This document shows positions 36,001 through 48,000 of a DNA stretch of 64,000 nt, in pieces. The DNA comes from Rhodospirillales bacterium (GTDB lineage: Bacteria; Pseudomonadota; Alphaproteobacteria; Rhodospirillales; SHVQ01): positions 957 through 64,956 of the forward strand of contig SHVQ01000004.1 of assembly GCA_009694195.1 (NCBI GenBank), read 5' to 3'. Positions within the stretch are counted from its first letter, which is position 1. Each line of letters begins with the position of its first letter. The position numbers were made by a program.

Positions 36001-39000
36001 GTACGCTTGCCGCCGACGGCTGGCTCCGGGGATCGTTCGGCCCGTGGACGGGGCTCTGGCACACGGCGCCCGGCGGCTGGTCGACAATGCCCGGCCACGG
36101 CCACGCCGATATCGGGAGCTTCGAGCTGCATTTCGGCCGCGAGCCCGTCTTCGTCGATCCCGGCCGCGGGGCCTACGGCGAGACGGGCGAAGCCGCGTTC
36201 TACCGGAGCGCTTCGGCCCATAACACACTTTTGGTCGACGGCGAGGACCCCTATCCGCCCAACCGGCCCTACTACAGCGATGACTTTCGCCGCCGGGTCG
36301 GCGGCCCGGAGCCGGAGGTCTGCCGCGACGACGGGGCCGTCATCCTGAAACACAGCGGATATCGGCGCATGCGGGGCGTCGGCGCCGTGAGCCGCCGGTG
36401 GCGTTTCACGAGCAAGTCCATGACGATCGAGGATCAAGTCGAGGGCTCGGCTTCGAAGGCCGTTTCGCGGAGGTTGCTCACGCCCCATGCAGTCGAGCAG
36501 GCCGGCGACGGGCTGCTCATAAAGACCCCGACGGCCGCGTTCCGCATGAGCGCGACCGGCGGCGACGTTTCGACCGCGCCGGCGAAACGGTGGACCGCCT
36601 ACGGCGAAAGCGAGCCGGCGACGATGATCCGGATCGACGCCCAGGCGGCGCTTCCGTGGCACGGCACGATGACGGTCGAGGTGCTCTGACGTGTGCGGGA
36701 TCGGCGGAATTTTTCTCCCGCGCAATGCGCCACCGCAGGACGCTGACTTGACGGCAATGATGGCGGCCATGCGCCATCGGGGACCGGATGGGAGCGGCCG
36801 CTTCGTGAGCGCGGACCGGCGTTATCAGGCGGCCTTCCGGCGCCTCGCCATCATCGATCTCAAGACGGGCGATCAGCCGATCGTCGAAGGGAACGGCGCC
36901 CGCGTTCTCGTCGGCAACGGCGAGATCTACAATTACATCGAGCTTCGAAAGGAAACCGCGGACTATCCCTACCGGACGGCGGGCGACATGGAAACCGTGT
37001 TGCCGCTCGCGGCACGGCACGGCCTCGACTTCGTGCATCGCCTGAACGGCATGTACGCCCTTGCCCTTTACGAGAGCGCGGCCGACCGCCTGCTGCTGGT
37101 GCGCGACCGGCTCGGCGTGAAGCCGCTCTACTGGACGCGCCTCGCCGCGGGCGGCATCGCATTCGCTTCCGAGATCAAAGCCCTGTTCGCGTCCGGCCTC
37201 GTCGATCGCGCGATCGATGAGGAGTCCGTCTCCGCCTATCTTTCGCACGGCTACGTGCCGGCGCCGCGCACGCTCTTCCGCGGCGTCTTCAAGCTGCCAC
37301 CCGGACACATCCTGGTCGCCGGAGGCGACGGCAGCATATCCGTCACCTCCTATTGGCGCCCGGCCATGGCCGAGAACGTGCCGGAGCGCGAAGAGGCAAT
37401 CGAAGAGCACCTGCTCGCCCTCCTGGAAGACAGCGTCCGGATCCAGCTCCGGAGCGACGTGCCGGTGGGCGCGCTGCTGTCCGGGGGGATCGATTCCGGC
37501 CTTCTGGTGGCGCTCGCGGCCAAGCACACGAGCGAGCCCTTGCGTACGTACACCGTGAGCTTCGAGGGCACCGACACGGACGAGGCGCCGCTCGCTCAAA
37601 CTGTCGCCGCCCGGTACGGAACCCGCCACACCCGCATCACGGTGCCTACGCGCAGCGCCGCGAGCGTGCTTCCGCGCCTCGCTTGGTACGCCGAGGAGCC
37701 GCTTAACGACGCCGCCTTGCTTCCGAACTTTCTTATCGAGGAAGTGGTGGGGCGGCACGTGAAGGTGGTGCTGAACGGGACGGGAGGCGACGAATTGTTT
37801 GCCGGTTACGGCCGCTACTTCCAGCTCCCGGTCGAGCGCGCATATCTCCGGATGCCGCGCTGGTTTCGCCGGGGGATCGTTGCGCCCGCGTGTCGCGCCT
37901 TTTCCCCATACACGGCGTGGCGGCTCGCGCGCGCCGATCTGTTCGCCCGGGATCGCGGCCGATACCTGCACGAACACAGCTGCCACTTCCCGCCGCCGCT
38001 CCGGAGCCTGATCGGGAACCGCCTGCCGCTGCCCGAGGGCGCGCAGGCGGCGGCGTTCCACAGCTTTCAGGGCCCGCCCGCGACGGCCGCGCTCGCAGCC
38101 GACATGCAGACGTATCTCCCCGACGACCTTCTCACGCTCCTCGACCGCACGTCGATGGCCTGGAGCGTTGAAGCCCGCGTTCCCTTTCTCGATCACCGGC
38201 TGGTGGAGGCCGCTCTCGCGGTGCCGCCGGAAATCCGCACTCGGGACGGCCGGCAGAAATCTCTTGAGCGCGCGATCGCCCGGCGCTTTCTCCCGGGGGA
38301 CGTCATCGCCGCGCCGAAGCAAGGCTTCGTCTCCCCGGTGCCGCAATGGATGACGGCAGGCCTCGGCGGCCTTGCCCGCCGCCTCCTCACCTCGCGAAGC
38401 GCGCTCGCGCGCGGCTGGTGGACGAAGGCCGGCGTTGAACGGCTGCTGGCCCGCCCCGACGCGCACGGGTATCGCCTGTACACGCTTCTGATGTTGGAGC
38501 TCGCGGTGCGGCTGTTCGTCGAGTCGCGCCCGACTGTGGCACCGCCCGGGGCCACGCTCGAGGATATCGCCGATGCCGCCTGAGACCGAAACCGGATTTG
38601 CCGCCGTCAGCGTCATCATCCCCGCCTACCGGGCAGCAGGAACGATCGCCCGCGCGCTTCGGAGCGTCGGCGCGCAGACATTGAAACCAAAAGAGATCGT
38701 CGTGGTGGACGACGGCTCCGACGACGGGACCTTGCAGGCAGCAGAGGCCGTCGTTCCCTCCCTCCAAGGCATCCAAGTCAAACTCGTCCGCCAGGCGCGC
38801 CAGGGAGCCGGTGCCGCGCGCAACCACGCGATCGCAGAATCGAGCGAGCCCGTTCTCGCGTTCCTCGACGCCGACGACGAATGGTTGCCGGAGAAGCTCG
38901 CGCGCAGCCTCCAGGTGATGGAGAGCGCGGGCGCCACCCTCGTCGCCCATAACGGCTGGATCGTGGACGGCGAGCGAGCGAGCCTCAACGATTGCGCGCG

Positions 39001-45000: not shown

Positions 45001-48000
45001 ACCACGGGAAAAACAGCGTGGATTCGCTTGTGGGCGAGTGATGCCTTCCTGCTGGGGGCCTGCGGCCTTTTTGCCGCCGCCCTCCTTGTCGTCCCGTCGA
45101 CCACGCAGACGGCGGGGTCCGAGAACTATTACTTCCCCCTGAACTTCTTTTTGAGCCTCGCCGGAGCCGCGGGCCTCGCGATCGCTTTCGAGGAAAGACC
45201 GCGTGAGGCGGCGCGCCTGTCTGCGTTCGTCGCGGCCGGGTGGATCGGACTTGCCGCCGCAGTCGCCGCCGTGTTCGCCGGCATGGCCGGCGTGATCGAC
45301 GTGCGCGGCCAACACGCGAATCACATGGCCCTCAAGCGTTGCCTCGACGGCCTTCCCCGCCCATTGTTCGTGTACGACCGCTATTTGTCGCTTCCCTGGA
45401 TGACGCCGGGGAATGAGCCCTTCGTTCTTTCTTACGTTTACGAAACCGAGCGGGCGCGCGGACGGCCGTTCGTGGACGGCGGCATCGGCGGCATGATCGA
45501 GGCGGGCCGCTTCCAGGCGGTCGCCATTCCGGGAACCGAGCCCGTATCATCGCTCGACCATGCCTCGCTCGCGAACTATGGTCCCGGTCCCCGCCGGTGC
45601 GCAGGGATGACCGTGCTCTACAAGAAATCCACATGACCCCAGGCGATTCATTCCGCGTCAAGACGCTGGCCGCGTGCCGCATTTGCGGCAGCGACGAGCT
45701 CCTGCCCTATCTCGATCTCGGCGAGCAGCCGCCCTCGAACAGCTTCATCCGGCCCGAGGACATCCCGAACGAGCGGTCGTTTCCGCTGACGGTCGCGCTG
45801 TGCGGCGAGTGCGGCCTTTCGCAGCTGCTGCACGTGGTTTCGGCAGCCGACATTTTTGACGACTACGTCTATTTGTCGTCGACCTCGAAGGCGCTCTGCG
45901 ATCACTACCAGGGCCTGGCCGACGACGCGGTGCGGCGCTTCCAGCCGGATGACGGCGCCGTCATCGTCGACATCGGGTGCAACGACGGGATCATGTTGAC
46001 CCGGTACCCCCGCAAGCGATTCCGGCTGCTGGGGATCGAGCCGTCGTCGGCCGGCGAACACGCGCGCAAAGCGGGCTTCGAAGTCGTGCCGAAGTTCTTC
46101 GCCCGCGAGCTCGGCAGCAGCCTTGCCAGGTCCCACGGACGCGCGCGCCTGATCACCGCGACCAATGTGTTCGCCCACGTGGACGACATCCGGTCTTTCG
46201 CCGAGGGCATCGAGGCGCTGCTCACCGAGGACGGCGTCTTCATCATCGAATTTCCCTATCTCGAGGAGATGCTCGAGCACTGCTACTTCGACACCGTCTA
46301 TCACGAGCATCTTTCCTATCTCGCGTTGACGCCCCTGCTTCGGCTGTTCGAGGACTGCGGTCTCCGCGCGTTCGCGGTCGAGCGGGTCGAGATCGGCGCC
46401 TCCGGCCCGGCCCTTCGGCTCTTCGTCAGCCGCCGCAACGCCCGGTTTCCGACGGACGCCGGCATCCCCGGCATGGCCGTGGACGAACGACGGCGCGGCA
46501 TCACGTCGGTCGCGCGCTATCGCGAGTTTGCCGGGCGCGTCGCGTCCGTCCGCGACCGCGTCCGCGCCGTGATCGCGGGCCTCCAGCGGGACGGCCATCG
46601 AATCGGCGCCTTTGCGGCCCCTGCCAAGGGCAACACGCTTCTCAACTATCTTCGCATGACGCCCGCGGACATCGTGGCCGTTTCCGAAAACAACGCTCTC
46701 AAAGTCGGGAAGGTGACGCCGGGGAGCCACATCCCCATCGTCGCCGAGGATGCGTTCCTGCGCCTCGGCGTATCGCATGCTCTCCTGCTCGCCTGGAATT
46801 ACGTTGACTTCTTTCTCAAAAATTCCGCATTCATCCAGCAGGGCGGAAGGTTCCTGGTGCCGCTGCCCGAGCCTACGTTGAGGCCCTAAACGTCTTGGAG
46901 CAGAACCGAGTCATCGATCCCATGCAGCGGGTTCCCGAGCTCGACATCGTCGTCCCGGTCTTCAACGAAGGCGAGCTGATCTCTGCGCTGATCGATTCGC
47001 TCCGGCGCGGCGTGAAGACACCCTGGCGTCTCTTGATATGCTATGACCTCGAAGGCGACGACACGCTTCCCGCGATCGAGCGCTATCCCCACCGCAAGGA
47101 CCTCGACGTCGAATTCGTGAAGAACCCCGGGCGCGGGCCGAACAGCGCCGTGCTTGCGGGGTTTCGGGCGTCGCGCGCCCCGGCCGTCCTCACATTCACG
47201 GCCGATGACGATTATAACGCAGGGATCATCGACCGCATGGCGCGGATGATCCGGGAAGGCCACGACGTGGTGACGGGAAGCCGGTTCATTCCGGGCGGTT
47301 CCTTCGAAGGCTGTGCGTGGCTGAAGGCCGTGCTGTCGCGGATCGCGTCGACAACCCTTTACCACATCGCGCGCCATCCGATTCATGACGCGACCAATTG
47401 CTTCCGGATGTTTTCCCGGCGCCTCCTCGAAGACGTGCCGATCGAGTCGACGGAGGGATTCATCTTCGCGCTCGAGCTCGCGGTGAAGGCGCATCGCCTT
47501 GGATGGAATGTCGGGGAGGTTCCCGCCCAGTGGCACGAGCGCCGATCCGGGAAGAGCCGCTTTCAGATCGCGCAGTGGTTCGGGCCGTACTTGCGCTGGT
47601 ACTTCTACGCGTTTGCCACCACGTGGCTCAGGCGCGGGCCGAACACCGTCCCCAGGCGCGAGTCGCGGAAGGCGGTCGCCTGAGCCGTCCCGTCAAAGCA
47701 GGATATTCGGGGTCCCGAGGAAATTCCAGATATCGAGGATCGGCTTGCCCTTGGAGTCGAGCTCCCGATAGGCGGCGTGGGGCACGCACATGATCAGGAT
47801 ATCGCTGCGCTTGAGGACGTCCGCGAGCGGTTTCAATTCGGGATCGGTTTTCACGTAGGGGTCCGTGCAGAGGACGCTCTTCGCCTGCACGGCGAGCTCG
47901 TTCTTCAGCTTGTAGCTCAAGGAGGCGCGGGTATCGTCGCTGTTCGGCTTGAACGCCATCCCGAGAAGCCCGACGGTCATCGACTTCAGACGATACCGCT

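Follow-up and report, generated by a model that had tools for sequence, protein, structure and literature searches.

A 64,000-nt stretch of DNA from a Rhodospirillales bacterium (GenBank assembly GCA_009694195.1, contig SHVQ01000004.1, positions 957 to 64,956 of the forward strand), called the window here and numbered from its first letter, carries a glycan locus of more than 50 kb. The locus covers at least the first 54.4 kb, with purH marking its end, and has genes for nonulosonic acid and for C-methyl, amino and uronic sugars. By gene make-up it is an O-antigen or capsule locus. Within it lie three short proteins of glycosyltransferase family 2 (GT2), of the DPM1/Ppm type by sequence, each accompanied by a large polytopic membrane protein. 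A first-pass annotation had seen in these genes three sets of a sugar-donor synthase and a transferase of the GT-C class. Sets 1 and 2 are supported by fold, family and synteny; set 3 is supported by synteny only. The interval 38573-47683, which had been assigned to the pairing, does contain sets 1 and 2, but its first gene (38573-39610) encodes a classical GT2 that lies outside any donor set.

Gene organization

Set 1 consists of a GT-C membrane protein of the ArnT/PMT_2 type, 624 amino acids (aa) long and with a C-terminal soluble domain (39607-41481, + strand), and a putative donor synthase, a DPM1/Ppm1-type GT2 of 239 aa (41490-42209, +). The two genes are 8 nt apart, as had been described. 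Between sets 1 and 2 lie a short-chain dehydrogenase/reductase (SDR) of the epimerase/dehydratase kind (42222-43214, +; Pfam Epimerase 162 bits, LegB-like 142 bits) and an S-adenosylmethionine (SAM) methyltransferase with an N-terminal Zn ribbon (43211-44086, +; Pfam Methyltransf_23/11/25). Set 2 starts with a GT-C membrane protein of 513 aa (44095-45636, +) and, by way of a Zn-ribbon nucleoside diphosphate (NDP)-hexose C-methyltransferase (45633-46889, +; Pfam Methyltransf_13, Methyltransf_14 and Methyltransf_23), continues to its own putative donor synthase, a DPM1-type GT2 of 262 aa (46895-47683, +). The open reading frame (ORF) of the C-methyltransferase begins at 45597, but its real start is probably 45633. 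This arrangement of set 2, and the epimerase and methyltransferases interleaved with the sets, had all been recognized earlier. A nucleotide-sugar 6-dehydrogenase (47693-48940, - strand; TIGR03026 248 bits, above cutoff) converges on the set 2 GT2.

Set 3 is found upstream and has the gene content originally listed for it: a candidate transferase, a polytopic protein of 602 aa with a C-terminal soluble domain (20948-22756, +); a "flippase-like" membrane protein of the LPG_synthase_TM (MprF flippase-domain) family (24706-25674, +; Pfam PF03706 113.9 bits); and a putative donor synthase, a DPM1-type GT2 of 245 aa (27244-27981, -).

Sets 1 and 2 are the downstream part of a longer gene block, 34884-47683, in which all genes are on the + strand and are separated by gaps of no more than 12 nt or overlap by 4-11 nt, and which therefore probably forms one operon. 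At its head are a heparinase II/III-like protein (34884-36689, +) and an AsnB-type amidotransferase (36691-38583, +), both recognized by Pfam and both heading the conserved block that carries set 1. The classical GT2 follows (38573-39610, +; SpsA/WcaA-type, 345 aa, with a hydrophobic C-terminal tail).

The G+C content of the window is 63-70%, and real genes were chosen by third-position G+C together with ORF analysis. Proteins identical or near-identical to those of the window are encoded by ENA metagenome contigs (ERZ1305449) and by an NCBI Rhodospirillales metagenome-assembled genome (MAG; MSO92262.1, MSO92278.1 and MSO92282.1). The independent gene calls of the ENA contig agree for the interval (345, 624, 239, 330, 291, 513, 418 and 262 aa), and for the set 1 and set 2 genes (624, 239, 513, 418 and 262 aa) starts and coordinates match as well.

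The GT-C membrane proteins of sets 1 and 2

The first-pass annotation had staked its proposal on the membrane proteins adopting a GT-C fold, and the AlphaFold2 models of the 39607 protein (pLDDT 89.8, pTM 0.92) and the 44095 protein (pLDDT 96.1, pTM 0.94) do adopt it. When the models were compared by Foldseek with PDB structures, the best match of 39607 was ArnT (5ezm, E 2.4e-6), with AftA, ALG9 and STT3 at probability 1.0 and AftD and DPY19 also found. For 44095 it was AglB (7e9s, E 5e-5), with ALG12, STT3, PglB, ALG9 and AftA at probability 1.0. Every match of either model with a probability of 0.96-1.0 is a GT-C enzyme, and transporters reach at most 0.4. The best full-length matches have query-normalised TM-scores of 0.5-0.54.

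The alignments (63 homologs for 39607 and 69 for 44095) single out residues in the first external loop. The motif DADSLAYHF, noted earlier in the 39607 protein, is at residues 120-128, and its D120, D122 and Y126 are invariant, as are K262, R427, H428, C585 and C622 elsewhere in the protein. Similarly, the GDEQSS of the 44095 protein is at residues 51-56, right behind helix 1 (residues 4-38 in the model), with G51 and E53 invariant. In both models the flagged residues sit where the helices of the first external loop begin, and from the fold the acidic ones (D120/D122 and E53) would be extracytoplasmic. The C-terminal domains each carry a Cys pair, invariant in 39607 (C585/C622) and nearly invariant in 44095 (C416/C502), which would fit an oxidising, periplasmic location of these domains.

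The 39607 protein scores 25.2 bits against Pfam PMT_2 (PF13231), the ArnT/PMT_2 family that is GT83-like in CAZy terms, just under the gathering score of 26.1; most of its homologs carry a precomputed PF13231 match, and NCBI names the family "GT39 family". The 44095 protein matches nothing in Pfam or NCBIfam. Its family is large: clustering at 50% identity gives 432 clusters for E<=1e-30 and 1662 for E<=1e-3. It occurs in Rhodospirillales, Verrucomicrobiota, Acidobacteriota and Planctomycetota, and all its members are labelled "hypothetical". Aligned with each other by hhalign, the 44095 and 39607 families give a weak match of 147 columns only (E 0.006, probability 6%). Searched against PDB sequences, the profiles of the 39607, 44095 and 20948 families found no meaningful match (for 39607, none at E<=1).

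The short GT2 proteins

The best solved relative of all three short GT2s is the Pyrococcus dolichyl-phosphate (Dol-P)-mannose synthase (DPMS; 5mlz), which aligns across nearly the whole catalytic domain: 83 bits over residues 6-233 for 41490, 46.5 bits over residues 15-235 for 46895, and 73.6 bits over residues 15-219 for 27244. Next among PDB sequences come ArnC and GtrB (for 27244, ArnC). The NCBIfam neighbours are all polyprenyl-phosphate sugar synthases: AglJ (112 bits), then PgfS, ArnC and PpgS for 41490; the haloarchaeal Dol-P-hexose transferase, PpgS, PgfS, AglJ and ArnC for 46895; and ArnC, AglJ and PgfS, in full-length alignments, for 27244. DAD or DDD motifs are seen in the sequences. 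The Ppm/DPM1-like nature claimed earlier for the three is thus borne out at the level of sequence, and 41490 is probably a polyprenyl-phosphate sugar synthase.

No hydrophobic segment, and none of the C-terminal transmembrane helices of the GtrB, ArnC and archaeal DPMS subtype, was found in 41490, 46895 or 27244. DPM1, the catalytic domain of Ppm1, and PpgS constitute a synthase subtype without transmembrane helices. It is this subtype, and not GtrB or ArnC, that the short GT2s therefore resemble. With a pairwise identity of only 25-34% they are old paralogs, which fits different substrates.

The classical GT2 at 38573 served as an internal control and behaves differently. Its best PDB matches are chondroitin synthase, GalT1 and PglI, and it aligns with DPMS over the N-terminal 110 residues only (23.5 bits). 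Pfam and PDB matches agree that it is a classical GT2, neither an epimerase nor a donor synthase, and it is probably a cytoplasmic chain-building transferase. In relatives of the locus (cited below by L number) a conserved micro-ORF encoding a single helix, with a pattern of roughly W.W....AAYLFQF[RK]..GP.L..LGL, is directly upstream of the 39607-type GT-C gene: 41 aa in L006 (9876-10001) and 47 aa in L001 (2332-2475). It also lies upstream of the GT-C genes in L007, L010, L011 and L015. In the window (39480-39610) its homologue is fused in frame as the C-terminal tail of the 38573 GT2, and this fusion suggests that the micro-ORF may provide a membrane anchor or small subunit for the 38573-type GT2.

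Conservation of the pairings

GTDB species representatives were scanned with 13 close sequences of the 44095 family, which gave 113 relatives in Rhodospirillales, Verrucomicrobiota, Acidobacteriaceae, Planctomycetota and SAR324; 80 loci were fetched with 10 kb of flank. Among the carriers are the cultured Paramagnetospirillum marisnigri SP-1, Magnetospirillum moscoviense BB-1 and Magnetospirillum sp. LM-5. DPMS-like GT2s were detected with a hidden Markov model (HMM) built from nine seed sequences. A full-length one lies within 5 kb of the 44095-family gene in 21 of the 25 closest loci. Where a DPMS-like GT2 is present (32 loci), the nearest is always within 5 kb although 10 kb were available, and in 15 of the 32 it is within 1 kb, a zone that makes up 11.5% of the flank sequence.

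The linkage is also specific to subtype. Orthologs of the 46895 GT2 (53-59% identity) accompany the 44095-type gene; the distance is 6-39 nt in L025, L036 and L045 and 2-5 kb in L001, L010, L029 and L030. Orthologs of the 41490 GT2 (61-71% identity) adjoin the 39607-type GT-C, at 9-137 nt in L007, L011, L015 and L024 and at 47 nt in L006. A GT2 is also directly upstream of the 44095-type gene in Magnetospirillum sp. SS-4 and in a Planctomycetota MAG. Over all, orthologous genes for a GT2 and a membrane protein are 6-140 nt apart in many genomes of only 35-65% identity, cultured Magnetospirillum relatives included. The pairing recurs in distant genomes and is not due to chance. The conserved neighbourhood supports, on sequence grounds, the pairs 39607+41490, 44095+46895 and 20948+27244.

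Sets 1 and 2 are kept together in the related metagenome loci L001 and L002, where the order is heparinase, GT-C, GT2, then GT2 (237 aa), GT2 (231 aa), a 506-aa protein, epimerases and C-methyltransferase, then GT2 (252 aa) and dehydrogenase. The C-methyltransferase thus stays beside the 44095-family gene, and the convergent arrangement of set 2 GT2 and dehydrogenase is retained too. L006 has heparinase, AsnB, GT2, micro-ORF, GT-C and GT2 (237 aa), that is, set 1 only; the order headed by heparinase and AsnB is also found nearby in L001 and in contig Ju-r37x2. The 44095 and 39607 families occur together within 10 kb in 9 of the 80 loci. To judge from these arrangements, the pairs behave as modules.

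Set 3 and its neighbours

The 20948 protein is probably the GT-C transferase of set 3, a candidate whose pairing comes from synteny. In L087 a 20948-type gene and an ortholog of the 27244 GT2 (59% identical) are convergent and 47 nt apart, and in L088 and L005 DPMS-like GT2 domains are 0.9-1.3 kb from the 20948-family gene. A conserved acidic loop is again found behind helix 1, with E41, D62 and D95 unchanged across 32 sequences of the family. NCBI calls the protein a DUF2079 protein. Its own DUF2079 score, 23.8 bits, is below the gathering score of 28.2, and a Pfam scan of the family gave weak matches only (DUF2079 in 4 and DUF6798 in 12 of the 32). A literature search for DUF2079 returned no paper that mentions it.

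The 24706 LPG_synthase_TM protein (34 bits, below cutoff, against TIGR00374, "flippase-like domain") is the only candidate for a lipid-sugar flippase in the locus, and would serve set 3 only. The neighbouring 25691, considered as a GtrA-like flippase, was ruled out: it encodes a WbuC-type cupin. The block 22827-27240, which comprises a B12-radical SAM protein, the LPG_synthase_TM protein, the WbuC cupin and a LegC-like DegT aminotransferase, is missing from L087 (11719-11766) and has the look of an accessory cassette gained by insertion. L087 has, a short way upstream of its set 3 region, an IS-type transposase pair (rve and HTH_Tnp_1, 6698-7905), which would fit a recombination-prone, variable locus. 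In contig YIF4KveX a 613-aa ATP-binding cassette (ABC) protein is beside the 20948-family gene.

Next to the set 3 GT2 is a GDP-sugar block (28103-33022, recognized by Pfam and NCBIfam), with a paralog of GMD (28103, +), an O-methyltransferase (29130, +), a second C-methyltransferase of the Zn-ribbon NDP-hexose type (30719-31936, +) and GDP-mannose 4,6-dehydratase (GMD; 31949, +). L087 has this block in the same order beside its 27244 ortholog.

A model for the locus

What was computed is how the genes are laid out, that two of the membrane proteins have a GT-C fold, that the three short GT2s are of the DPMS type, and that the pairing is conserved; from this we infer a lipid carrier, a topology, a flipping step, sugars and an acceptor. 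We think it likely that the locus makes a surface glycan of the lipopolysaccharide (LPS) O-antigen type, with a WecA-like start, and that the glycan is finished by three parallel donor/transferase pairs on the outer face of the inner membrane. The WecA-like enzyme would start the glycan on undecaprenyl-pyrophosphate (Und-PP). On the cytoplasmic face, each membrane-peripheral DPM1/Ppm1-type GT2 (41490, 46895 and 27244) would move one sugar from its nucleotide sugar to undecaprenyl-phosphate (Und-P). The lipid-sugar would be flipped across the membrane, possibly by the 24706 protein. The cognate GT-C (39607, 44095 and probably 20948) would then add the sugar to the exported glycan, still Und-PP-linked or already ligated, by means of the acidic residues that are conserved in the first of its external loops.

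Up to three different sugars had been proposed, and this fits both the low identity of the GT2s and the different sugar-tailoring genes beside each. Probably the three sugars do differ and are tailored by the adjacent enzymes. From the neighbouring genes our guess for set 3 is a methylated 3-C-methyl-6-deoxyhexose derived from GDP-mannose, and for set 2 a C-methylated and/or uronic sugar, which the 45633 C-methyltransferase would probably tailor. The set 1 sugar may be the more conserved one, again a guess, because the set 1 GT2 is the best conserved of the three.

Several observations weigh against this picture. In the more distant 44095-family loci a DPMS-like GT2 was found in only 11 of 55, with an HMM that is narrow. 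The 20948 family shows no similarity to the 39607 and 44095 families by hhalign, nor to PDB sequences by profile search. The short GT2s match none of ArnC, PpgS, PgfS and AglJ at the equivalog level; the best score is 112 bits against an AglJ cutoff of 325 and the rest are far below, and no donor sugar can therefore be named. No GtrA, SMR or MATE flippase was found in the window by Pfam scans of all called genes and a check of small membrane ORFs. Finally, no WaaL ligase was found in the window, and hence the acceptor could be O-antigen, core/lipid A, capsule or protein.

Other substrates for the pairs have to be considered in this light. Lipid A or the LPS core could be the target of the GT-Cs, as it is for ArnT or RgtA-D/RgtF in other alphaproteobacteria, with the GT2s in the role of ArnC or RgtE and with, for example, charge-altering uronic or amino sugars. 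In favour of this are ArnT as the best structural match of 39607, the nucleotide-sugar dehydrogenase conserved beside the set 2 GT2, the DegT aminotransferase near set 3, and the known occurrence of the Rgt system in alphaproteobacteria (PMC7663294). We nevertheless regard this as unlikely. The pairs appear embedded in, and co-transcribed with, a variable glycan locus initiated by WecA/WbpM, and their cassette-like variation among relatives is typical of O-antigen diversity and not of conserved lipid A/core chemistry; ArnC, moreover, scores far below cutoff and no ArnT model was matched. Glycosylation of periplasmic or outer-membrane proteins in the manner of PMT/Ppm1 O-glycosylation, to which the first-pass annotation had drawn a parallel, is very unlikely. 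Ppm1 plus Pmt is indeed the actinobacterial arrangement, and the PMT_2 match and the "GT39 family" name of the 39607 family point the same way, but neither 39607 nor 44095 matches the PMT (PF02366) or MIR domain of Pfam, and for want of these defining domains a PMT (GT39) protein O-mannosylation role was rejected. In the Foldseek lists of both models Pmt1, Pmt2 and Pmt4 come far behind ArnT, AftA and ALG9, and the context is polysaccharide biosynthesis with a WecA-like initiator. Of the parallels first drawn (Gtr/Arn or PMT-type), the logic of periplasmic glycosylation is supported, and to judge by the surrounding genes an LPS/O-antigen-type glycan is a better candidate than protein mannosylation of the PMT type.

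A different division of labour would have the GT-Cs use Und-PP-oligosaccharides, as an oligosaccharyltransferase, polymerase or ligase, and make the short GT2s ordinary cytoplasmic extenders of the repeat unit. The best fold matches of 44095 are oligosaccharyltransferases (AglB, STT3 and PglB), Wzy and WaaL were not found in the window, and only two glycosyltransferases, 38573 and 50183, are clearly classical. The 44095 fold, however, resembles oligosaccharyltransferases no more closely than it does ALG9, ALG12 and AftA, whose donors are polyprenyl-phosphate monosaccharides, and neither E-values nor TM-scores separate the two groups. An STT3 Pfam match and the WWD(xG) motif are absent from both the 39607 and the 44095 sequences, and on this account an oligosaccharyltransferase (GT66) role was set aside. 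The tight, subtype-specific linkage to DPMS-type GT2s is a signature of polyprenyl-phosphate sugar users, and the best full-length relatives of the GT2s are all synthases of such sugars. We consider this scheme quite improbable.

A bolder possibility, about which we are rather doubtful, is that the GT-Cs are not side-chain decorators but assemble the main chain itself, extracytoplasmically and sugar by sugar, from exotic lipid-linked donors (C-methyl-branched, amino or uronic). The window leaves room for it: just two of its chain-building transferases are clearly cytoplasmic, an ABC exporter is present, and Wzy was not found. If so, the locus would be a Gram-negative counterpart of the ALG3/9/12 steps in the lumen of the endoplasmic reticulum or of mycobacterial arabinan/mannan assembly, the 44095 family would found a new GT-C family in CAZy, and the machinery would include, as a small subunit, the conserved single-helix micro-protein of about 40 aa that adjoins the 39607-type GT-C.

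Comparison with known systems

The logic proposed here, that of three parallel pairs finishing an exported glycan, is that of known periplasmic glycosylation. Particular to the locus are the three copies, which have diverged, the lack of any recognisable flippase of the GtrA type, and one GT-C family (44095) that has no Pfam or NCBIfam model. Three-component systems of this kind (PMC11127046) combine a GT-C with a flippase and with a GT2 or other enzyme that makes the polyprenyl-phosphate monosaccharide. The Gtr-type systems (GtrA/GtrB/Gtr* of Shigella and Salmonella, gml of Klebsiella and ORF12-15 of Citrobacter; PMC11127046) likewise have linked, cassette-like genes for synthase and GT-C. 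GtrB, however, has two C-terminal transmembrane helices that the GT2s here lack, and Gtr systems have a dedicated flippase, whereas no GtrA, SMR or MATE gene accompanies the pairs in the window. They also reside in prophage or accessory loci, in contrast to three diverged pairs inside a main biosynthetic operon; the sugars here are probably not plain glucose.

Dedicated, specific pairs of Und-P-sugar synthase and GT-C within one polysaccharide locus are also found in the SCC side-chain system of Streptococcus mutans, which has two synthases (SccN, SccP) along with two GT-Cs (SccM, SccQ), paired as SccN/SccM and SccP/SccQ, and whose flippases are still unknown (PMC11754754). That system is Gram-positive, has a rhamnan as its target and uses glucose in both of its two pairs; the present one is alphaproteobacterial and has three pairs, with GT2s of only 25-34% identity and different tailoring genes beside each. 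The Arn and Rgt systems are alike in that ArnT is the best fold match of 39607, ArnC is among the top relatives of the GT2s, and an aminotransferase and a dehydrogenase are nearby. Yet no equivalog-level match, no ArnA/ArnD and no ArnE/F are found here, and the context is O-antigen-like. In alphaproteobacterial lipid A, RgtE works with RgtD and RgtF (PMC7663294); one synthase thus serves several GT-Cs, whereas here the relation would be one to one. With the eukaryotic and actinobacterial systems of DPM1-Ppm1 and PMT or ALG3/9/12 the pairs share a synthase catalytic domain without transmembrane helices, and the leading fold matches include ALG9 and ALG12. They differ in that PMT/MIR domains are absent, no DPM2/DPM3-like subunits were identified, and the carrier is presumably Und-P instead of dolichyl- or decaprenyl-phosphate.

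Our understanding of the mechanism itself is not changed by these findings. What they would do is to extend the logic of lipid-sugar plus GT-C to marine and freshwater Rhodospirillales, whose surface glycans are essentially uncharacterised, and to provide an unannotated GT-C family, that of 44095, with a fold predicted at high confidence, with residues that may be catalytic and with a probable partner enzyme. With three specific pairs in a single operon, the locus would offer a natural setting in which to study how a GT-C recognises the lipid-linked donor that belongs to it. The cultured carriers (P. marisnigri SP-1, M. moscoviense BB-1, and Magnetospirillum sp. SS-4 and LM-5) make the pairs testable. 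A literature search for Magnetospirillum O-antigen returned only papers on flagellin glycosylation.

Other genes of the locus

Between a nonulosonic-acid-type block (1-19 kb) and the initiation module (49-54.4 kb), the set 3 region (19.9-27 kb) is followed by the GDP-mannose-derived block (28-33 kb), the heparinase-like protein and AsnB (34.9-38.6 kb), and the classical GT2 with sets 1 and 2 (38.6-47.7 kb). The initiation module (49161-54404) has a WecA-like phosphotransferase (49161, +; Pfam Glycos_transf_4, NCBIfam WecA), a GT4 (50183, +; Pfam Glycos_transf_1), an SDR (51472, +; Pfam Epimerase) and a WbpM/PseB-like membrane dehydratase (52446, +; Pfam Polysacc_synt_2, NCBIfam PseB). Pfam scans found no Wzx or Wzy in the window. 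L006 has a gene of the Wzy_C family (O-antigen ligase/polymerase; 19736-21097) beside its WecA-like gene, and a counterpart was not found in the window.

The first block includes NeuB (922), a NeuC-like 2-epimerase (2011) and a fused exporter with the transmembrane and nucleotide-binding domains of ABC proteins (4205-6073, +; Pfam ABC_tran and ABC_membrane), which is a candidate exporter or flippase for the lipid-linked glycan. Downstream are a 538-aa protein without family match (7914), two GFO/IDH/MocA oxidoreductases (9527 and 10636), an SxtJ-like protein (11713-12102) that is the sole small membrane ORF of the window, a carbamoyltransferase (12214), a methyltransferase (13968), SGNH proteins (15022 and 16963), a CMP-transferase-like protein (16163), a HAD protein (18287) and an AP_endonuc_2 protein (19039). 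The gene order of 1-19900 is largely kept in L005, L087 and L088. To go by its genes, the block suggests a carbamoylated or methylated nonulosonic acid.

Genes for methylation are found throughout the locus: the two Zn-ribbon C-methyltransferases, the B12-radical SAM protein (22827) and at least six other methyltransferases. Their number points to a glycan that is unusually heavily methylated. One SAM methyltransferase (33987-34885, -) is split over two frames by a frameshift near 34238. It is intact, at 301 aa, in an ENA contig of the same organism, and L006 has an ortholog of 297 aa; the split is either a sequencing/assembly error or a pseudogene.

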